Origin: Escherichia phage pEC-M719-6WT.2 | Direction: 5' to 3' (one strand) | Length of the DNA: 64,000 bases | Sequence record: OQ845958.1 | Shown: positions 3,248 through 34,684 of the stretch, piece after piece | Layout: every line of letters begins with the position of its first letter | Position numbering within the stretch: position 1 is the stretch's first letter | Notes under the pieces: generated by a model | Database searches by the model: none | The model's input: the letters and a program-made list of their open reading frames with translations, nothing else | What the model was told of the DNA's origin: nothing | Translations under genes and position numbers: made by a program

Positions 3248-3556
3248 ATGAGTGAATTAGACGGACAAACAATTTATCTGGGCGATGGCAACGAAGACGA
3301 CCTGGAATATAAACTATACGAATACATGGTCGCCCTGGCAAAGGAAGAAGGTATTGACTTTGCTGTGGCTAACCCGTATGGTGAGAACACTGTTGTAATT
3401 GGTGGCACTGCTTATGAAGTCCAATGGCAATACGTTGGGCTTGAATCTATAGAATATGAAGAAGATAAGCATGGCGATTGGCATCCGGTGGGTCCCTGGT
3501 ACTGGGACGACGGTGAGCCTGATTTTGAAGTATCAAGCTATTGGAGTGACCAATGA
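3248..3556 (+). CDS. hypothetical acidic protein
   Basis: 102-aa ORF, overlapping stop/start with next ORF. Confidence 0.45.
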   Translation: MSELDGQTIYLGDGNEDDLEYKLYEYMVALAKEEGIDFAVANPYGENTVVIGGTAYEVQWQYVGLESIEYEEDKHGDWHPVGPWYWDDGEPDFEVSSYWSDQ

Positions 3557-3873
3557 CTATTGAAAATGAATTAGATGTTGATGCTGTTTTAAGCGAAATC
3601 ATTGAAGACCATGATGCGTTTACTGAATCATACGAGTTTGAATTTTCGGACTACCTGGTTCCGGTTGAATTAGGCGAATGGACACAATCTGGCAAATACC
3701 AATATCGCCAGGCAATTTATTTCAGCAAAAAACATAATGTACATGTGGCTGTAAACGAAACTCGTACCGGCTCTTATCATACCGACTGGGACCATATGGT
3801 CCCGACTGTTGAACTGGTCAAGCTCCAAGAACGTGTCGTAACCCAAACTATCAGAGAATGGATTACGCTATAA
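3553..3873 (+). CDS. hypothetical protein
   Basis: 106-aa ORF in coupled chain. Confidence 0.45.
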   Translation: MTIENELDVDAVLSEIIEDHDAFTESYEFEFSDYLVPVELGEWTQSGKYQYRQAIYFSKKHNVHVAVNETRTGSYHTDWDHMVPTVELVKLQERVVTQTIREWITL

Positions 3874-4163
3874 AACCATGGTACACCGCTCGATGGGAAA
3901 CCGTCGAGCCAGAGGAACCTGTTTACAACGATTCCGAAATAGATTATAATGAACCTTCAAACAATGATTTAATCGATATGGAGTTTGGATATGAGTACCA
4001 AAATTGAAATTGGCCGTCATAAAGGCCGCCTGATTGAAAAATCACTTTATGAACTGTCGGATTCCCGTAAGTTACCCGATGAAGAATCTGCTTTAATTTT
4101 TGCCGCGGCGGATTATATCCATTGGCTTGAAGCTCAACTTCGCTTTGCTGATAAGGCCTTTTA

Positions 4164-4436
4164 ATGTTTTTAGAAATTGTTAATATTCATGCGGCTGCTC
4201 AATCAGGTTTTATGAAAGAGCTTCAAGACGCAGGATTTAAAAATGGTGATGTTATCCATGCGTTAAGACAACGTTTTGACCCTGACGTTGAATGTAATGT
4301 TTGGGACGTTGTTGAAACGGATGAATACCTTTTTGATACCATAGAAATTGAAGGGTCATGGACCTGTATCACTGAGTATATGATAATTGATAATGGTAAC
4401 GTTGAATGCCATTATCCTTGTTTTAGGATTGTTTAA
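4164..4436 (+). CDS. hypothetical protein
   Basis: 90-aa ORF, ATG overlapping upstream stop. Confidence 0.4.
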   Translation: MFLEIVNIHAAAQSGFMKELQDAGFKNGDVIHALRQRFDPDVECNVWDVVETDEYLFDTIEIEGSWTCITEYMIIDNGNVECHYPCFRIV

Positions 4437-4647
4437 TGAAAACTGCATTAGTCTATACCGAAAAGTTAAACGGTGACAAGGTCTGGAAACTTCTTATCAA
4501 AGGAAGCCCTACTGACCAGTTTATGGCCACCTGTGTGGGATTGTATACTCGTCCTACTAAAAAGATGATTCGTCAATTTAAACGGTTACACCGCGCGTTT
4601 TATAAGATTTAATAAATACCCTTATCTAATAATGGTAAGGGTTTATT

Positions 4648-5121
4648 ATGTTGTTGACTGGCAAATTATACAAAGAAGAAAAACAAAAACTTTATGATGC
4701 ACAAGCTGGTAAGTGTCCAATTTGCCACCGTGATTTGGACTCCGATGTTCAGGCCAACCATCTTGACCATGACCACGAATTGAACGGGCCAAAAGCCGGT
4801 AAGGTTCGCGGGTTACTATGCAATCTGTGCAATGGGACAGAAGGACAAATGAAGCATAAGTTCAGCCGTTCGGGTCTGAAAAGTCGCGATGTTGACTACC
4901 TGGAATGGTTAGAGAGTTTGCTTGTCTATCTGAAATCTGATTATACCGAAAACAATATTCACCCCAATTTTGTAACAGACAAAGCCAAAGAGTTCGGTCG
5001 TCTGGGGAAAGAAGAAATGATTCGGGAAATGCTTTTGAATGGTATGACTTATAATGAATCTGACACCAAAACACAATTAATGGCTTCATTTAAGAAGCAG
5101 CTTAGAAAGAGTTTAAAATGA
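4648..5121 (+). CDS. 49: endonuclease VII (Holliday junction resolvase)
   Basis: 157 aa, MLLTGKLYKEEKQK...HLDHDHELNGPKAGKVRGLLCNLCN; near-identical to remembered T4 gp49. Confidence 0.92.
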   Translation: MLLTGKLYKEEKQKLYDAQAGKCPICHRDLDSDVQANHLDHDHELNGPKAGKVRGLLCNLCNGTEGQMKHKFSRSGLKSRDVDYLEWLESLLVYLKSDYTENNIHPNFVTDKAKEFGRLGKEEMIREMLLNGMTYNESDTKTQLMASFKKQLRKSLK

Positions 5122-6935
5122 CAATTGAAAACGAAATTGAAGGATTGATTCATAAAACTAATAAAGACCTTTTAAACGAGAATGCTAATAAAGATTCTCG
5201 TGTTTTTCCAACTCAACGGGACCTTATGGCTGGTATTGTATCTAAACACATTGCCAAAAATATGGTTGCGCCTTTTATTATGAAAGCACATGAAAGTGGA
5301 ATTATTCATTTCCATGATATTGATTATTCCCCTGCTCTTCCATTTACTAATTGCTGTTTAGTAGATTTAAAAGGAATGCTTGAGAACGGATTTAAGCTTG
5401 GTAATGCACAGATTGAAACTCCTAAATCAATCGGTGTTGCTACTGCAATTATGGCACAAATTACTGCACAGGTTGCTTCTCACCAATATGGCGGAACGAC
5501 TTTTGCTAATGTAGACAAAGTATTTTCTCCTTATGTTAAACGTACATACGCAAAACATATTGAAGATGCAGAAAAATGGCAAATCACTGATGCATTGAAT
5601 TATGCCCAATCTAAAACAGAAAAAGACGTATACGATGCATTCCAAGCTTATGAATATGAAGTAAATACTCTCTTTAGTTCAAACGGACAAACGCCTTTTG
5701 TAACCATTACATTTGGTACGGGAACTGACTGGACTGAACGAATGATTCAGAAAGCAATTCTGAAAAATCGTATCAAAGGTCTTGGTCGCGATGGGATAAC
5801 TCCTATTTTCCCTAAACTTGTTATGTTCGTTGAAGAAGGTGTTAATCTTTATAAAGACGACCCGAACTATGATATTAAGCAGCTTGCTCTAGAGTGTGCA
5901 AGCAAAAGGATGTATCCTGATATTATTTCAGCTAAGAATAATAAAGCTATCACTGGTTCATCTATTCCTGTTTCTCCAATGGGTTGCCGTAGTTTCTTGG
6001 GCGTATGGAAAGATTCGACTGGTAATGAAATTCTTGATGGACGTAATAATCTTGGTGTTGTAACACTGAATCTTCCTCGCATTGCGTTAGATTCTTATAT
6101 TGGAACACAGTTCAATGAACAGAAATTTATCGAATTGTTCAATGAGCGAATGGATTTGTGTTTTGAAGCTTTGATGTGTAGAATTAATTCCTTAAAAGGA
6201 GTTAAAGCGACTGTTGCTCCTATTCTTTACCAAGAAGGTGCATTCGGGGTTCGTCTTAAACCTGATGATGATATAATTGAGTTATTTAAAAACGGTAGAA
6301 GTTCAGTGTCTTTGGGATACATTGGTATTCACGAATTGAATATTCTTGCCGGTCGTGATATTGGGCAAGAAATTTTAACTAAAATGAATGCTCGTCTTAA
6401 GCAGTGGACTGAAAGAACCGGTTTTGCTTTTAGTTTGTATTCTACACCTGCTGAAAACCTTTGTTATCGCTTCTGTAAACTTGATACTGAAAAATATGGA
6501 AGTGTAAAGGATGTTACTGATAAAGGCTGGTACACTAATAGTTTCCATGTTTCAGTAGAAGAAAATATCACCCCGTTTGAAAAGATTTCCCGCGAAGCTC
6601 CATATCATTTCATTGCGACAGGTGGTCACATTTCTTATGTTGAACTTCCTGATATGAAAAATAACTTAAAAGGTCTTGAGGCTGTATGGGATTATGCTGC
6701 GCAACATTTAGATTATTTTGGTGTTAACATGCCAGTAGATAAATGTTTTACGTGTGGAAGTACCCATGAAATGACTCCTACTGAAAACGGATTTGTTTGT
6801 TCTATTTGTGGAGAAACTGACCCTAAAAAGATGAACACAATAAGAAGAACTTGTGGTTATTTGGGAAATCCGAACGAACGCGGATTTAATCTCGGCAAAA
6901 ATAAAGAAATCATGCATAGGGTTAAACACCAATGA
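5118..6935 (+). CDS. nrdD: anaerobic ribonucleoside-triphosphate reductase
   Basis: 605 aa, C-terminal glycyl-radical motif RRTCGYLG and Zn-ribbon cysteines; one uninterrupted ORF. Confidence 0.92.
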   Translation: MTIENEIEGLIHKTNKDLLNENANKDSRVFPTQRDLMAGIVSKHIAKNMVAPFIMKAHESGIIHFHDIDYSPALPFTNCCLVDLKGMLENGFKLGNAQIETPKSIGVATAIMAQITAQVASHQYGGTTFANVDKVFSPYVKRTYAKHIEDAEKWQITDALNYAQSKTEKDVYDAFQAYEYEVNTLFSSNGQTPFVTITFGTGTDWTERMIQKAILKNRIKGLGRDGITPIFPKLVMFVEEGVNLYKDDPNYDIKQLALECASKRMYPDIISAKNNKAITGSSIPVSPMGCRSFLGVWKDSTGNEILDGRNNLGVVTLNLPRIALDSYIGTQFNEQKFIELFNERMDLCFEALMCRINSLKGVKATVAPILYQEGAFGVRLKPDDDIIELFKNGRSSVSLGYIGIHELNILAGRDIGQEILTKMNARLKQWTERTGFAFSLYSTPAENLCYRFCKLDTEKYGSVKDVTDKGWYTNSFHVSVEENITPFEKISREAPYHFIATGGHISYVELPDMKNNLKGLEAVWDYAAQHLDYFGVNMPVDKCFTCGSTHEMTPTENGFVCSICGETDPKKMNTIRRTCGYLGNPNERGFNLGKNKEIMHRVKHQ

Positions 6936-24275: not shown

Positions 24276-24609
24276 TATCGATTTATCTGATTTAGATAAT
24301 TTCGAGAAAGATGCGGAGGGAGCTAAGGCTCCTTCTGTACCTTACTACGAAAAAAGTTTGGAGATTATCCGGCAATCCATGGGAACTGTGCGACAGGAAA
24401 TTCTGTTATCACTCCCCGATGGGTCCAATCACATCGTGTACGTAACCGGAATTAAAATTGAACCATCTGGAAAAGTTTCAGTTGATTTCGGCACCCCTTC
24501 TGAAGACCGCAAAGCGGAGCTTGCAGTGCATGTAGAAAAGTGTGTTACAATGCAAATACAAGATGAAATTGATAAGATTAAAATGAAAAAGAGGTGGTGG
24601 AAGTGGTAG
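24265..24609 (+). CDS. 40: gp40-like protein (by position)
   Basis: 114-aa ORF between uvsX and gp41 as in T4; size-compatible. Confidence 0.55.
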   Translation: MMNDIDLSDLDNFEKDAEGAKAPSVPYYEKSLEIIRQSMGTVRQEILLSLPDGSNHIVYVTGIKIEPSGKVSVDFGTPSEDRKAELAVHVEKCVTMQIQDEIDKIKMKKRWWKW

Positions 24610-26033
24610 AAACTATTTTATCCCAGCTACTCTTTAACAAGGAATATTTTGTTAAAGTCTGGCCATATCTGAATAGCACATATTTTGAAAAGGGTCCAGC
24701 GAAGACCCTTTTTAATACGATTAACGAACACGTAAAAGAATATCAGGCGGTGCCAACTAAGACTGCACTTGATATCGCGCTCGACAGTTCTGACCTTTCT
24801 GAAGTTGAATATGAAGGCACCAAGAAACTCTTAGGAGTCCTTGCTGATACTCCAGAAGACCAGGAATGGTTGGTTAGAGAAACCGAGAAGTATGTACAGA
24901 AGTCTGCGATGTTCAATGCCACATCCCGGATTATCGAAATCCAGAGTAATGCCGAACTTCCGAAAGATAAACGTGATAAACGAATCCCGGATATTGGTGC
25001 TATCCCTGATATCATGCGTGATGCATTATCTATCTGTTTTGACTCTGCACTGGGCCATGACTGGTTAAACGATTACGAAGCTCGATTCCAGACTTATCTG
25101 AACAAATCGAAGAAAGTTCCGTTCCGCATTAATATCCTGAATAAAATCACGAAGGGTGGAGTTGAGTATGGTACAGAAAACGTTTTACTGGCCGGGACCA
25201 ACGTCGGGAAATCTCTAGGACTTTGTTCGTTAGCGGCTGACTATCTTCAGACTGGTCATAACGTTCTTTATATAAGCATGGAAATGGCCGAAGAAGTATG
25301 CGCCAAACGTATTGATGCCAACTTGCTGGATGTGTCTCTGGATGATATTGATGAAGGTCATATATCATGGGCAGAATATAAAGCTAAGATGGAAAAATGG
25401 CGTGCTTCCGGGACTCTTGGGACTCTGAAGATAAAACAATATCCAACTGGTGGTGCTCATGCGGATACCTTCCGCGCGTTGCTGAATGAATACAAACTGA
25501 AGCAAGGGTTTGTGCCGGATGTGATTATTGTCGACTACCTGGCAATCTGTGCAAGCTCAAGACTGAAAACGTTTACCGAAAACAGTTACGGCCTGATTAA
25601 GATGGTTGCAGAAGAACTTCGTGGTCTGGCAGTCGAGAAAAATGTGGTCTTGTGGACTGCAGCGCAGACAACCAGGGGCGCGAACGTTGCAGCCGAGATT
25701 GATATGGCTGACATTGCAGAATCCTTTGGTATTGCTCACACGGCTGACTTTATGTTGGGTGTTGTTGAGACCGAAGAATTCGCTCAAATGGGGCTGCAGT
25801 TAATCAAACAGCTTAAGTCTCGTTATGGTGATAAGAACTACTATAATAAATTCAAGATGGGTGTTAAGAAAGGTAATCAGCGCTGGTATGAGGTTGATGA
25901 TGATTCGGCTCCTAAACAAGGCCCTACGGTTAAAGAAGCCACCGGTGAGATGAATCGCCAGGCTGAAATGAATAGACAAACCAGGGTCAACAGGAGCGAC
26001 CTGGACGACCTTGCTGCTCAAATGAAATTTTAA
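24594..26033 (+). CDS. 41: replicative DNA helicase gp41 (DnaB-like)
   Basis: 479 aa, GTG start, Walker A GTNVGKS, strong match to remembered T4 gp41. Confidence 0.95.
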   Translation: MVEVVETILSQLLFNKEYFVKVWPYLNSTYFEKGPAKTLFNTINEHVKEYQAVPTKTALDIALDSSDLSEVEYEGTKKLLGVLADTPEDQEWLVRETEKYVQKSAMFNATSRIIEIQSNAELPKDKRDKRIPDIGAIPDIMRDALSICFDSALGHDWLNDYEARFQTYLNKSKKVPFRINILNKITKGGVEYGTENVLLAGTNVGKSLGLCSLAADYLQTGHNVLYISMEMAEEVCAKRIDANLLDVSLDDIDEGHISWAEYKAKMEKWRASGTLGTLKIKQYPTGGAHADTFRALLNEYKLKQGFVPDVIIVDYLAICASSRLKTFTENSYGLIKMVAEELRGLAVEKNVVLWTAAQTTRGANVAAEIDMADIAESFGIAHTADFMLGVVETEEFAQMGLQLIKQLKSRYGDKNYYNKFKMGVKKGNQRWYEVDDDSAPKQGPTVKEATGEMNRQAEMNRQTRVNRSDLDDLAAQMKF

Positions 26034-26045
26034 AATATTTAAAAA

Positions 26046-26068
26046 GGGGCTTACAGCCCCTTTTTCTT
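26046..26068 (+). terminator. intrinsic terminator GGGGC-ttaca-GCCCC + TTTTTCTT
   Basis: GC stem plus T-run immediately after gp41 stop. Confidence 0.6.
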
Positions 26069-26078
26069 ATGTTATAAT
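26051..26078 (+). promoter_or_regulatory. early promoter overlapping terminator (-35 TTACAG in loop, extended -10 TGTTATAAT)
   Basis: 17-nt spacing between loop hexamer and TATAAT. Confidence 0.4.
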
Positions 26079-26104
26079 GACTCTATCAACTACTGGAGAA
26101 TAAA

Positions 26105-26422
26105 ATGAAAACCATTGATTGCAAGGCAGAATACAAAGTTTATTATCATGGGTCAAGCTCTAATGCTGGAATCCAAAATATGCTTTGTCCTCCTGATGCA
26201 ACTGGTGTTCTGTCAGAAGTTGGACGTAAGAAAAATTTAGGGCGTGTGTTTTTTACTGAAGATATTGGTTTGGCGCGTATCTATGCAGGAAGAGCAGCTC
26301 GCTCATATGGAGGAGAGCCCCGTCTTTATCGTGTGATTGCACCGGTTGACGTGGTTTGTTTAAATGATACTAAAGGCGCAACAGTTTATCACGCTGCCTG
26401 GGCCTTCTGCGAGGAAATCTAA
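26105..26422 (+). CDS. hypothetical protein with PARP/diphtheria-toxin-like H-G-S motif
   Basis: 105 aa; VYYHGSSSNAGIQNM then GRVFFTED; first ORF of the island after gp41; SD GGAG. Confidence 0.45.
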   Translation: MKTIDCKAEYKVYYHGSSSNAGIQNMLCPPDATGVLSEVGRKKNLGRVFFTEDIGLARIYAGRAARSYGGEPRLYRVIAPVDVVCLNDTKGATVYHAAWAFCEEI

Positions 26423-26626
26423 ATGTATAAATTAGAAAACGTAGTATTTATTGGTTGGTTTGAAAATGGTAATATGTTTACCAAAGAAACCGCGCTGGAT
26501 GTTAGTGACCAAAATATGATTGAATGGGTTACAGTGCAGTATGCAGAAGTGAATAATGCGCTGGTTAAAGCCTTTGTTAATGACAATAAAGTTTTTGAAT
26601 ATGATGCCCGCATTGAGGAAATTTAA
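26423..26626 (+). CDS. Dmd-like small protein (tentative)
   Basis: 67-aa ORF in the gp41-gp61 island where T4 has 61.5/dmd; similarity recalled from memory only. Confidence 0.4.
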   Translation: MYKLENVVFIGWFENGNMFTKETALDVSDQNMIEWVTVQYAEVNNALVKAFVNDNKVFEYDARIEEI

Positions 26627-26866
26627 ATGAATATCACATTAATGAAACCTACCCCTAGTTCTTTTTGGAATAAATCTTTTGGTAAGCATAATATGTTTAT
26701 CCAACGCACCGTAAGCAGCTGGGAACTAGTTCTTTCAGTCGGCCACAATGATTATGAACAAGAATACGTAGAGTTCTTCGAATTTCCTGTGAAACCTACC
26801 AAGCGTCAGATTCGTCAGACAAAACGCAAATTCCGCAAAATTTATCTGGAAGATGCATTAAAATAG
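26627..26866 (+). CDS. hypothetical basic protein
   Basis: 79-aa ORF. Confidence 0.4.
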   Translation: MNITLMKPTPSSFWNKSFGKHNMFIQRTVSSWELVLSVGHNDYEQEYVEFFEFPVKPTKRQIRQTKRKFRKIYLEDALK

Positions 26867-26895
26867 TGTACAACAAAGGGATAATGCTGTATATT
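26867..26895 (+). promoter_or_regulatory. early promoter (-35 TGTACA, -10 TATATT) with hairpin GGGATAAT/ATTATCCC
   Basis: 17-nt spacer; 8-bp stem encloses -10. Confidence 0.4.
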
Positions 26896-26923
26896 ATCCC
26901 TATCAACTACTGAGGAGATTGAA

Positions 26924-27217
26924 ATGAAAAAGTTATTAATCGCGGCAATTCTTACCGTAGCATCATGTGGTACAGCTCCAGTTACTGCTGGACTTGATAA
27001 AGACCTTTGTGAGTGGTCTATGACTGCTGACCAGACTGATGTTGAACATCAGATTTATGCTGATATTATGAACATAACTAAACGTGACCGCCCTGATATG
27101 GTTAAAGAAGTATCTGACAAATTGACTTCTGGTGACGTTATGCAGTATAACTATGTTCTGTATTGCGATGCTTCATTTGACAATAGCAAAATTGTTCAAT
27201 GGGTTACAGGTGAATAA
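26924..27217 (+). CDS. sp: Spackle-like periplasmic protein
   Basis: 97 aa with signal peptide MKKLLIAAILTVASC; size and position (61.3-like) fit T4 spackle. Confidence 0.55.
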   Translation: MKKLLIAAILTVASCGTAPVTAGLDKDLCEWSMTADQTDVEHQIYADIMNITKRDRPDMVKEVSDKLTSGDVMQYNYVLYCDASFDNSKIVQWVTGE

Positions 27218-27218
27218 A

Positions 27219-27656
27219 ATGATTAACAGAAATTTAGTTATCAAAAAACTTCGCTGTAAAAATCCAAATGCACAGGCATACCGGGTGTTTTGGAGCGACG
27301 AAATTCAATACCTGGGTTATTTTCTTGTTGATAGTGATGATAGAATTACGTTTGCTCATAAGCTTCTTAACAAAGAATTAAACCATTGGCAAGAACTTAT
27401 TGCAGTCAAGTCTAAATTATTTTCGCGCAATACAATGCACCAATTGGTTTATTTTTTCGCTGATGGTATTCCTGACAAGGTTGAGTTTGATGGGTTTGAA
27501 TTTAAAGACATCAATCCTAACAATGAATTGAATGACAGTATTGTTAATATGGGTATTCCTGGTAAGTACATCAAAAACAGTCTTTTGAAAATTCTGGAAA
27601 CCCCTGTATATTCAGTTGACGACCAAATTTTTAATGCCTTTATGAAGCGAGATTAA
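27219..27656 (+). CDS. hypothetical protein (paralogous C-terminus)
   Basis: Ends ...DDQIFNAFMKRD, same tail as next ORF. Confidence 0.45.
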   Translation: MINRNLVIKKLRCKNPNAQAYRVFWSDEIQYLGYFLVDSDDRITFAHKLLNKELNHWQELIAVKSKLFSRNTMHQLVYFFADGIPDKVEFDGFEFKDINPNNELNDSIVNMGIPGKYIKNSLLKILETPVYSVDDQIFNAFMKRD

Positions 27657-27657
27657 T

Positions 27658-28026
27658 ATGTATATTCAAAGCGATTTGTCTTATCTGAATTTTGAATTAG
27701 TTAAAAATAATGATGGTAATGCTCATTATGAATTCCGCGAGCCTCGTTATAATCAGGCGATTGGTTATATTATTGTTAAAGATGGCGTTATCATAAAGGC
27801 TCGCTCATTTATGGTAATGAATGGGCCTTATGAAGATACTCGTGGCTATCCATTTGATAAAAAGAATGTACGCGATTGTGCAGCGTGGATAACCGGAAAT
27901 CCTGAAATTGGGGTCATGCTATCTACTGAAGCAAATGACATTCTGGATGCTGGCTGGGTTAAATCTCAAGAACCGCCTACTGATATTGATGACCAGATTT
28001 TTAATGCTTTCATGAAGCGAGGTTAA
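27658..28026 (+). CDS. hypothetical protein (paralogous C-terminus)
   Basis: Ends ...DDQIFNAFMKRG. Confidence 0.45.
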   Translation: MYIQSDLSYLNFELVKNNDGNAHYEFREPRYNQAIGYIIVKDGVIIKARSFMVMNGPYEDTRGYPFDKKNVRDCAAWITGNPEIGVMLSTEANDILDAGWVKSQEPPTDIDDQIFNAFMKRG

Positions 28027-32587: not shown

Positions 32588-33148
32588 ATGAACATCATCA
32601 AATCTGATACCGAACCCAACCAGTTAAAATTTAGTGAAATGGAGATAGCTTCATTATTTGAATGCCGTACATCAAAGGTTGATAAGACCTTGCATTCAAA
32701 TGTCAACTCAATCATCAAGTCAAGGTTGTCTATACCCGATACAGTCTTGTGGCGCGGGGTAACCCAGCAAGAGATTGATTTATTAGATGAAGCAAAAGAA
32801 TCAATGCAACCTTTTGAATTTGGACGGGTAACCTCCTTTACAGAAGACTATGGTATTGCCAGGGATTTTGCTGCAATGGAATATGTGACAAGGACTATCG
32901 TCAGATTGAATCAGACCAAAGCTTTTTGTTACCATGATGCGATGCGCAAAATCGCACTTGATGTTCCACTTGAATTCTTCAATACAGCTTCTGGTTCCGC
33001 CCAGGCAGCTACATTAAGGCGTGAAGAATACATGGACATGATTGATTCTGAGCTTGAATGGTTTGTTCCAGTTGACCAGAAATTCGTGGTAGTTGATGCT
33101 GGATTTATTGATGATTATTATGTTCTTGACTGTGTACAAGAGCAATAA
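32588..33148 (+). CDS. mono-ADP-ribosyltransferase, ModA/ModB family
   Basis: R-S-E ART signature: LWRG, VTSFTED, ELEW; tandem with next ORF. Confidence 0.6.
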   Translation: MNIIKSDTEPNQLKFSEMEIASLFECRTSKVDKTLHSNVNSIIKSRLSIPDTVLWRGVTQQEIDLLDEAKESMQPFEFGRVTSFTEDYGIARDFAAMEYVTRTIVRLNQTKAFCYHDAMRKIALDVPLEFFNTASGSAQAATLRREEYMDMIDSELEWFVPVDQKFVVVDAGFIDDYYVLDCVQEQ

Positions 33149-33192
33149 GACACGTTAAGATGTTCCTATCAACTACTGATGAGGATAATAAA

Positions 33193-33807
33193 ATGCTGTA
33201 CACTGATGACGTTTTGAATGGAATTATTAACACTGCCGCTTCTAGTGAGTCTTTTCGTAACCAATGTCAAGCGGAGATTGATGCTCTTTATACAGATAAT
33301 GAGCAATCAGTACTCTGGCAGTGTATGGAAAATAAACCTGACCTGATTCAAGAAGACTTGTCCAGGATTATCCGCAACAATCTGAATACTGCACCGCCGG
33401 CAGCATTGTTCCGTGGTATATCAAAGAAAACCATGGAATACCTGGAAGATTTAAGATATGTTGGTGCAACAATTGAATTCAATCGTGTAATGAGTTTTTC
33501 CAGGGACTGGCAGGTTGCAAGAAATTTCGCATCATACAGTTTCTATGGAACAAGGAACATTTTCTGTATAAACAATGCACCATATGCGTATAACTATCAG
33601 GAAGCAATCTTCAAAATGATTTGTGGTGCTCCTCCTGAAGAGTTCAATGGTGCATATCCAGAAGCAACCAGGAAGTCAAACTTGCACCTGGTTAATGATG
33701 AAGATGAGTTTATGTTTCCCGCTGGGACTACGCTCCGCGTAGACTTGATTGAAACACACCCATTGAATAACCTGTATACTGTTTGGCATTTAACTGTTTT
33801 GAACTAA
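33193..33807 (+). CDS. mono-ADP-ribosyltransferase, ModA/ModB family
   Basis: ALFRG, MSFSRD, EDEFMFP motifs; paralogue of preceding ORF. Confidence 0.6.
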   Translation: MLYTDDVLNGIINTAASSESFRNQCQAEIDALYTDNEQSVLWQCMENKPDLIQEDLSRIIRNNLNTAPPAALFRGISKKTMEYLEDLRYVGATIEFNRVMSFSRDWQVARNFASYSFYGTRNIFCINNAPYAYNYQEAIFKMICGAPPEEFNGAYPEATRKSNLHLVNDEDEFMFPAGTTLRVDLIETHPLNNLYTVWHLTVLN

Positions 33808-33940: not shown

Positions 33941-34684
33941 ATGAATATGTCAAAAGAAGAGTTTGAATTAAAAGTTTACAAACGTCGCGAGCATACCAAA
34001 ACGTCTGCAAAACGTCGTAACAAGGATTTCAATCTGTCTAGTAAGTATATTGCCAATCTTTTGAAACAAGAATTCTGTGCGTATTCTGGTGAACGTTTTG
34101 ATGAAAATTCAACTCAAGATAAAGTTTCCTTTGAACGCTTTAACAATGATATAGGTTATATTGAAGGCAATGTTATCCCTGTCAAAACTAAGTACAACGG
34201 TTTACGTGCTGATTTATCTCTTGATGAACTTAAACGTGCACAGACTCGTTTGGCGGTGCGTATTAATGGCGGTTCTAAGATGCCCAATAGTTTTAAAGTA
34301 ACTCCCGCTGACTATTATAAAATTCGCAAAATTGTTAAAAATATTAAAGATACCGAACGTGGAATCAAGAAGCGTCAAAAACATTTAAAAGAGCTTTATA
34401 AAAGTGGCGCTAAAGATACCACCCCTTCTGTGATTGCAGTCAAGGCTCGTATCCATGGACAAATGGCTTCCATCGGAACTAGTCAACGTGGGCTGAAAAT
34501 GGTTATGGGTGGTCCTGACTGGCGTCTGAAAATGAAATCATCTGACGCTGAAACGCGTTACGATATGTATGATAAAATTATTCAAGGTCTGGAGCGTTTA
34601 GATAAGTTGTCATTCATTGACCGCCTTAAACTGAAACGTGGTCTGCCTTTGAACGCGTCAATTTTTAAACTGATTAGAGGTTAA
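33941..34684 (+). CDS. Srd-like protein (by position); carries HNH-like SFERFNNDIGYIEGNV motif
   Basis: 247-aa basic ORF between mod genes and dda where T4 has srd. Confidence 0.4.
   Translation: MNMSKEEFELKVYKRREHTKTSAKRRNKDFNLSSKYIANLLKQEFCAYSGERFDENSTQDKVSFERFNNDIGYIEGNVIPVKTKYNGLRADLSLDELKRAQTRLAVRINGGSKMPNSFKVTPADYYKIRKIVKNIKDTERGIKKRQKHLKELYKSGAKDTTPSVIAVKARIHGQMASIGTSQRGLKMVMGGPDWRLKMKSSDAETRYDMYDKIIQGLERLDKLSFIDRLKLKRGLPLNASIFKLIRG

Follow-up and report, generated by a model that had tools for sequence, protein, structure and literature searches.

A small protein encoded between gene 41 and dmd of a T4-like coliphage is predicted to be a divergent, Arr-related ADP-ribosyltransferase-fold effector

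Introduction

Which protein family does the small product of the gene directly upstream of dmd in some T4-like phages belong to, and does it act alone or as the partner of Dmd? The gene in question is the open reading frame (ORF) at positions 26105-26422 (+ strand, ATG start, 105 residues) of a 64,000-nucleotide stretch of Escherichia phage pEC-M719-6WT.2 (sequence record OQ845958.1), referred to below as the window. An earlier note on this DNA had placed the ORF at these positions and had drawn attention to an H-G-S tripeptide (VYYHGSSSNAGIQNM, residues 12-26) that is followed by GRVFFTED (residues 46-53), reading the two as the beta-1 and beta-3 elements of an ADP-ribosyltransferase (ART) of the H-Y-E type. 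Both motifs are where the note put them, with H15 and F49 34 residues apart; the tripeptide alone is weak evidence, as by a rough estimate its chance occurrence is about 2% at this protein length.

The prediction of an ART at this locus is not new, as the locus fits a description by Iyer et al. 2022 (PMC9503650), who reported that in T4-like phages of Escherichia and Shigella the gene of a predicted ART lies directly upstream of dmd (the ‘p0068-family ART + Dmd’), assigned this ART to the H-Y-[EDQ] clade and interpreted it as a toxin for which Dmd would be the antitoxin. Based on this fit, the ‘p0068’ family is almost certainly the gene family studied here. Several GenBank records label a homologue ‘putative ADP-ribosyl transferase’, one Klebsiella phage record names it ‘rifampin ADP-ribosyl transferase’, and our literature search found no experimental work on this protein. 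New here are the specific link to the Arr family, the phenylalanine in place of the triad tyrosine, the apparent lack of a family-wide catalytic acid and the finding that the pairing with Dmd is not general. We conclude that the protein is very likely an ART-fold homologue of Arr, and the reading that we favour, and consider probable, is that it is a minimal, stand-alone, early effector of this fold that depends on nicotinamide adenine dinucleotide (NAD+) and represents a divergent branch of the Arr lineage.

Results

Predicted fold and relation to Arr

An AlphaFold2 model of the 105-residue protein, built on a 37-sequence alignment of its close homologues, has a mean predicted local distance difference test (pLDDT) score of 87.1 and a predicted template-modelling (TM) score of 0.79; the pLDDT is 71 for residues 31-40 and 82 for residues 41-50. 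The model contains a strand (13-18), a short helix (30-33), a second strand (48-51) and a helix (54-68), followed by four strands, and structure comparison recovers from it the split beta-sheet fold of ARTs. Fold searches with two programs returned only ARTs as top matches, with Arr and Tpt1 nearest; in Foldseek against the PDB, the Arr structures 9iaf and 2hw2 came first (probability 1.00, TM 0.61-0.62 over 103 columns). When the search was made against BFVD, the first match outside the protein’s own family was a 94-residue siphovirus protein named ‘Rifampin ADP-ribosyl transferase’ (TM 0.73-0.81). The earlier note had named structure prediction and a fold search as the way to check its reading, and the outcome agrees with that reading; it had also named PARP, DarT, Tpt1 and diphtheria toxin as likenesses, of which Tpt1 is indeed near, the closest structures being those of Arr and Tpt1 and not those of PARP or diphtheria toxin.

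The relation to Arr can also be traced by sequence through the wider family. An exhaustive profile search of 1.84 billion representatives gave 243 relatives at an expectation value (E) <=1e-3, and two profiles were used, one of the close homologues (A1) and one of 65 diverse wider-family domain sequences (A2). Pfam’s Arr-ms family (PF12120) matches 33 of these 65 domains at E <=0.01 (best 8.7e-11), whereas no other ART family in Pfam matches any of them. Distant members exceed the 25-bit Arr-ms gathering score (26-38 bits) on exactly the profile-matched stretch, and five of the 37 close homologues match Arr-ms weakly (best E 0.084). An hmmsearch with A2 of all PDB sequences retrieved only Arr-ms (E 1.1e-3) and Arr-2 (E 0.027), and hhalign of A2 with Arr-2 gave a probability of 95.3% (E 2.4e-8) over columns 6-84, ending at residue 89 of the 150 in Arr-2; residues 21-89 of the Arr-2 sequence used here agree with 9iba. 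None of the 65 domains matches a PADLOC defence ART model (such as DarT or CmdT) at E <=1. Taken together, the profile, hhalign and Pfam results argue that the family is a divergent offshoot of the Arr lineage, homologous through beta-4 and without the last third of Arr. The relation of the 105-residue protein to Arr-ms is one of homology by transitivity rather than of direct PF12120 membership.

The domain as a module of larger phage proteins

Residue counts in this study were taken over 107 representatives that are <50% identical to each other, a set that a stricter filter reduces to 103. Solo proteins of <=150 residues make up 48 of the 103, and in the rest the domain lies within larger proteins of up to 3924 residues, where it is C-terminal in 30 cases, internal in 20 and N-terminal in five. 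The domains that co-occur with it include tape-measure, ART-PolyVal (PF18760), NUDIX, GNAT, Toprim and DUF7178. The earlier note had cautioned that 105 residues are fewer than in known ART domains; because phage proteins of several domains repeatedly contain the same unit of roughly 95 residues as a module complete in itself, this concern no longer holds. The larger proteins are of the polyvalent kind, for which Iyer et al. 2017 (PMC5512222) argued that they enter the cell with the DNA and have an early action on the host.

One related locus (L066, positions 3455-6007) encodes an 850-residue polyvalent-type protein with an internal Arr-like domain (…TFYHGTSSALGL…KVFFTKDLGSAKIYAGRA…). The protein has no Pfam match at E <=1e-3, two more ‘YH[GA]T’ segments in it may represent further domains of ART-like type, and its gene adjoins SNF2-type helicase and thymidylate synthase-like genes.

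Conserved residues and the catalytic acid

The residues that define the family are encoded at the following positions of the window, numbered along the 105-residue protein.

26147-26155, + strand: codons of H15-G16-S17, the putative NAD+-site motif on beta-1, aligned with H19-G-T of Arr-ms
26216-26236, + strand: codons of E38-V-G-R41-K-K-N44, a conserved, family-specific acidic/basic loop between beta-1 and beta-3
26246-26257, + strand: codons of V48-F49-F50-T51, the beta-3 strand, with F49 at the position of the ART ‘Y’
26282-26284, + strand: codon of Y60, an invariant aromatic residue in the helix after beta-3
26411-26413, + strand: codon of E103, which lies in the last strand and is a candidate for the catalytic acid in the T4-like subgroup only

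H15 and G16 are present in all 107 representatives and position 17 is always Thr (95) or Ser (12), a degree of conservation that is not due to chance. GRVFFTED was correctly taken for the beta-3 element, as the counterparts of this strand are I-Y49-I-T in Arr-ms and I-Y-F-S in Arr-2, F49 falling on Tyr49 of Arr-ms and H15 on its H19. In the H-Y-E assignment made by the note, the beta-1 histidine and the ART fold stand and the tyrosine does not, as position 49 is Phe in 105 of the 107 representatives and Tyr in two, so that it remains aromatic; T51 is found in 104. Tyr60, which occurs in all 107, lies 11 residues past F49, which is the spacing of the nicotinamide-stacking tyrosines Y896/Y907 of PARP1 and Y54/Y65 of diphtheria toxin (the comparison is one of spacing, not of superposed structures). 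The most distinctive signature of the family is the loop LLPPxxTGxxSExGRKKNL that joins beta-1 to beta-3, in which E38 is present in 102, R41 in 104, K43 in 89 and N44 in 85 of the representatives; residues 38-44 may have a role in binding phosphate, substrate or NAD+. Ala57 is conserved in 106 of 107, and P29-P30, G69-G70 and G91 are nearly invariant.

The third position of the catalytic triad is less clear. E103 is nearly invariant in the 37 close homologues and is Glu in only 13 of the 107 wider-family representatives; under the stricter filter, 13 of 103 members have E and five have D at position 103, mostly in small solo proteins ending in AF[VIL]E, and the remaining wider-family members end in a hydrophobic ‘SAK[VI]’ strand. 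No acidic residue past beta-4 other than this subgroup E103 is conserved in the wider family, and E38 precedes beta-3. Because of these counts we rejected E103 as the catalytic Glu of the family, and no family-wide equivalent of that residue is evident.

These residues bear on an alternative in which the protein binds NAD+ or a derivative of ADP-ribose without passing it to a macromolecule, as a sponge for an immune signal, a decoy or an NAD+ glycohydrolase. Invariant pocket residues next to a catalytic acid that is not conserved and a Tyr-to-Phe exchange are what such a binder might have, and the protein is very small and strongly conserved, as phage sponge proteins are. However, its closest relatives Arr and Tpt1, which modify substrates other than proteins on a hydroxyl or phosphate, are active transferases without the classical Glu; moreover, polyvalent proteins place the domain among the enzymatic ART-PolyVal, NUDIX and GNAT domains, and catalytically competent members typically have the H-G-[ST] that is invariant here. 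On balance we consider a non-transferring binder unlikely and prefer an effector that transfers ADP-ribose.

Conservation and distribution

The ORF is a real gene under strong purifying selection. The ratio of nonsynonymous to synonymous substitution rates against its relatives is 0.04-0.14, with synonymous sites near saturation. By tblastn, the 105-residue protein is found in 609 phage records, 605 of which cover >=80% of it, from phages of Escherichia, Klebsiella, Acinetobacter, Aeromonas, Enterobacter, Vibrio and other hosts, and its homologues form 121 clusters in the protein database. In most loci it is better conserved than the product of the neighbouring gene 41, the helicase gp41 (87 versus 69%, 85 versus 67%, 74 versus 60% and 71 versus 58% identity for ART and gp41 in the same loci). 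A homologue with 85% identity from Shigella phage Shf125875 (BFVD A0A088FVK8) is recorded with 149 residues as compared to 105 here, which is probably due to an over-extended start codon in the annotation.

The family is essentially phage-only. No homologue was found by tblastn on 72,556 plasmids, and a scan of 185,579 bacterial species genomes gave only three loci, all on phage-like contigs (167-178 kb or short), which argues that the T4-like subgroup has no cellular reservoir.

Phage T4 itself lacks the gene. There, gene 41 is followed 58 bp on by dmd with no gene between them, and the 105-residue gene is therefore an insertion relative to T4. Two related loci from IMG/VR (L027 and L028, with the ART gene at 4001-4285) have a gp41 that is 99% identical to that of the window and an ART that is only 79% identical, pointing to the swapping of alleles or cassettes directly downstream of gene 41. 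The ART allele of these two loci is 10 residues shorter at the N-terminus, and L028 has a 188-residue lipoprotein-like ORF in place of dmd.

Genes and signals around the ART gene

The window is part of a T4-like coliphage of the Gaprivervirus type, as the identity over positions 24594-27700 is 98.4% with Escherichia phage ECML-359 and 96-97% with the SP18/VR-type phages of the genus Gaprivervirus. The ART gene lies between gene 41 (replicative helicase, 24594-26033) and dmd, and past dmd the order is a 61.4-like ORF, spackle (26924-27217; phrog_1586) and two small ORFs. The signals and genes of this interval are listed below.

26041-26065, + strand: intrinsic-terminator-like hairpin (AAAAAGGGGCTTACAGCCCCTTTTT, 11 pairs, then a T-rich tail) closing the gene 41 transcript
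26050-26078, + strand: putative sigma-70-type (early-type) promoter with an extended -10, a consensus match (CTTACA-17 nt-TATAAT)
26095-26099, + strand: Shine-Dalgarno sequence GGAGA, as read from the sequence, 5 nt upstream of the ATG
26105-26422, + strand: Arr-related ART-fold protein, 105 residues, PHROG 2110 (phrog_2110, E 1.3e-58)
26423-26626, + strand: dmd, whose product is an antitoxin that counters RnlA/LsoA of the host (phrog_2102 ‘Dmd discriminator of mRNA degradation’, E 2e-33)

The phrog_2110 match spans the protein from end to end and carries the function label ‘unknown’. The putative promoter agrees with the consensus at 10 of 12 positions, has TG before its -10 hexamer and is the top promoter-like site in 25800-27300; judging by this match, it would drive the ART gene and probably dmd and the genes beyond. 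The hairpin starts 8 nt past the stop codon of gene 41 and reads as a terminator on either strand. It overlaps the -35 element of the promoter, CTTACA lying within its loop and descending stem.

The same interval of T4, between genes 41 and 61, also carries anti-defence genes, such as adfA (61.2). Two ORFs of the window, 27234-27656 (phrog_8539) and 27658-28026 (phrog_4122), and T4 gp61.2/AdfA (L003, 3633-4259, minus strand) are otherwise dissimilar and have the same C-terminal peptide, [SI][VI]DDQIFNAFM[KN]R[GD]. With its constant map position, this common tail could either mark a junction at which recombination exchanges cassettes or serve as a functional C-terminal tag.

About 6 kb downstream of the ART gene, the window encodes tandem Mod-type ADP-ribosylases (32588-33148 and 33160-33807), followed by a homologue of the anti-sigma factor Srd (phrog_1400) at 33941-34684. 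Neither Mod protein is recognised by Pfam. The earlier note had assigned 32588-33807 to Mod enzymes encoded apart from the 105-residue gene, which is borne out by their match to phrog_832 (‘RNA polymerase ADP-ribosylase’), and its suggestion that the small ORF belongs to a second, different ART class is supported as far as fold and homology go. Within 8 kb, this phage thus encodes ARTs of at least two classes that are unrelated to each other.

Association with Dmd

The start codon of dmd abuts the stop codon of the ART gene (TAA ATG). This abutment and a promoter common to both genes in the window, with the same arrangement in 10 related loci, speak for a type II toxin-antitoxin pair, in which the ART would be a toxin that is bound and restrained by Dmd (Iyer et al. 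2022, PMC9503650). We examined 65 related loci from IMG/VR, searching for Dmd within 4 kb by tblastn (E 1e-3). A Dmd homologue is present in 10 of them, always immediately downstream of the ART gene, and these dmd products are 55-58% identical to T4 Dmd. In the other 55 loci none was detectable within 4 kb, though Dmd is short and diverges fast, so remote versions may be missed. What follows the ART gene immediately downstream in the 55 loci varies; it can be the gene of a Cys-rich acidic peptide or of a small membrane protein, a lipoprotein-like ORF or a gene for some unrelated protein. When all ORFs within 3 kb were clustered across the 65 loci, no conserved partner gene emerged, the commonest being T4 core genes in <=23 loci, and no macro, NADAR or ARH-type reversal genes were found beside two distant solo homologues. 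Phages of Acinetobacter, Vibrio and Klebsiella carry the ART gene at other places without dmd.

Two of the replacements recur at the position of dmd. Four loci (L010, L020, L021 and L022) have a Cys-rich and very acidic ORF of 41-46 residues (MEEVECVVC…C.DC..EQEEY…EEE, zinc-ribbon-looking), and Klebsiella- and Enterobacter-type loci have a membrane protein of 55-60 residues.

Because dmd is near only 10 of 65 ARTs, the neighbours vary and T4 has dmd without the ART, an obligate toxin-antitoxin pair is improbable. T4 Dmd has its own established target, RnlA/LsoA. The domain also occurs within polyvalent proteins without Dmd, and abutting genes are usual in this genome, where dmd and the ORF after it abut as well. 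The ART gene and dmd look like accessory genes that are independent of each other and happen to be adjacent in a hypervariable early region, the one from gene 41 to gene 61, and the stand-alone effector again accounts better for the locus.

Discussion

Proposed role

In the reading that we favour, and judge probable as a whole, the gene would be transcribed early by the host RNA polymerase from its own sigma-70-type promoter past the gene 41 terminator, as the consensus match suggests. The H15-G16-S17 strand, F49/T51 and Y60 are predicted, from the homology to Arr and their invariance, to form the nicotinamide/ribose pocket that binds NAD+. The ADP-ribose would then be passed to a target that probably either is shared by gammaproteobacterial hosts in conserved form or is part of the core machinery of T4-type phages, as the protein is more conserved than the replicative helicase next to it. 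The acceptor may be a phosphate or hydroxyl of a nucleic acid, or a small molecule, and not a protein side chain; such a non-protein acceptor may follow from the nearness of Arr and Tpt1, the missing universal beta-5 Glu and the conserved basic loop. E103 in the T4-like subgroup, or the family-wide E38, may assist catalysis. The protein would work alone as an effector of host takeover or counter-defence rather than as one half of an obligate pair with Dmd, which agrees with the embedding of the domain in polyvalent proteins proposed to be injected with DNA.

Several points weigh against this reading. The classical tyrosine is replaced by Phe, and no catalytic acid is conserved family-wide. The single 105-residue sequence has no Pfam match even at E <=10, remaining below the 25-bit gathering threshold, and profile A1 has no PDB match at E <=10, so that the link to Arr needs the wider family or the structure. 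In addition, the Arr-ms matches cover only model positions 1 to 66-71 of 99. The gene is absent from T4 and thus not essential to the T4 way of life, and the argument from sequence conservation to a conserved target is indirect.

A more specific version, which we put forward tentatively and by analogy, is that the protein might be the smallest natural ADP-ribosyltransferase and not modify proteins at all, transferring ADP-ribose to the hydroxyl or phosphate of a universal non-protein acceptor. Candidate acceptors would be an end or a base of RNA or DNA, an immune signal derived from a nucleotide or a small-molecule inhibitor of host RNA polymerase. Such universality would explain why an accessory gene is better conserved than that of the replicative helicase in phages whose hosts are Escherichia, Klebsiella, Acinetobacter, Aeromonas and Vibrio.

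By contrast, a true equivalent of Arr, which would inactivate rifamycin-type inhibitors of RNA polymerase or another small-molecule toxin and so protect phage transcription, seems very unlikely. Arr is the sole solved family matched by sequence and is top in Foldseek, the Klebsiella phage record carries the rifampin label, and bona fide Arr genes occur in some actinophages (Iyer et al.). The similarity is nevertheless confined to the first 67 of the 99 Arr-ms positions, the length falls short of that of Arr by about 35-45 residues, Arr W59 is replaced by Ile, and the family is essentially phage-only with no member on the 72,556 plasmids, where resistance genes would be expected; a direct Arr function was rejected on the ground that the C-terminal third of Arr is missing. 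Finally, the view that a small protein of some unrelated kind has H-G-S by chance, for which the lack of Pfam, NCBIfam and PADLOC matches to the single sequence and the ‘unknown function’ label of PHROG 2110 might speak, can be dismissed, as two fold-search programs, the profile-to-PDB search, hhalign and the Pfam matches of the relatives all converge on ARTs, and on Arr especially.

Phage T4 provides the textbook case of ADP-ribosylation by a phage (Alt, ModA and ModB); the gene described here would add a fourth, unrelated ART in about 600 sequenced T4-like phages, though not in T4. A compact ART core of ~95 residues that outconserves a helicase and is reused in giant polyvalent proteins points to an important early target. 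If the acceptor is indeed not a protein, T4-type phages would have a fourth, mechanistically distinct ADP-ribosylation activity. Identification of the target would extend the catalogue of phage takeover and counter-defence chemistry, and the domain may offer a minimal ART scaffold for engineering.

Comparison with known systems

Arr (PF12120; 2HW2, 9IAF and 9IBA) is the closest relative of the window protein by both sequence and Foldseek. The two have in common the beta-1 H-G-T/S, the E-x-G-R loop, the beta-3 x-[YF]-x-[TS] strand with the helix that follows and the beta-4 ‘V-E-P-x-G’, and each is a small ART that consists of a single domain and lacks the classical catalytic Glu. Arr has about 140-150 residues, and its C-terminal third is without a counterpart in the 105 residues of the phage protein. 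Tyr49 of Arr is Phe, and the residue after the one replacing W59 is the invariant Y60. Past the aligned region, the D83-D84 stretch of Arr has no conserved acidic counterpart in the phage family, and Y60, the PP motif and the RKKN loop are peculiar to the latter.

The RNA 2'-phosphotransferase Tpt1/KptA, which is near in fold through its NAD+-binding C-terminal lobe, shows no sequence-level match to the window protein (Pfam, and A1 and A2 against the PDB). Membership in this family was rejected because beta-1 starts at residue 13 of 105, leaving no room for the N-terminal RNA-binding lobe, which carries the catalytic Arg-His-Arg residues of Tpt1; the second His of Tpt1, in its ‘VHLS’ strand, is Phe here.

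The system of Iyer et al. 2022 differs from what is seen here, where Phe takes the place of the triad Tyr, conservation of the third residue does not extend to the whole family and Dmd is adjacent in only 10 of 65 loci. AcrIF11, a phage anti-CRISPR that ADP-ribosylates Cas8f (6KYF), has no detectable sequence-level relationship with the window protein, and the host range of the latter (phages of E. coli, Klebsiella, Acinetobacter, Aeromonas and Vibrio) and its high conservation argue against a single fast-evolving defence protein as its target.

T4’s own ARTs are only the R-S-E-type Alt, ModA and ModB. Like the window protein, they belong to T4-type phages, and Alt and Mod act early on host proteins or RNA; in contrast, they are of the R-S-E clade, have about 200 residues or more and carry an Arg motif where the window protein has H-G-S, with no detectable sequence similarity between them. 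The ART-PolyVal domain (PF18760) is, like the domain studied here, a module of polyvalent proteins and sometimes lies in the same polypeptide (P0131 and P0152). The two are nonetheless distinct, as they occupy separate stretches and the domain studied here matches Arr-ms rather than PF18760.

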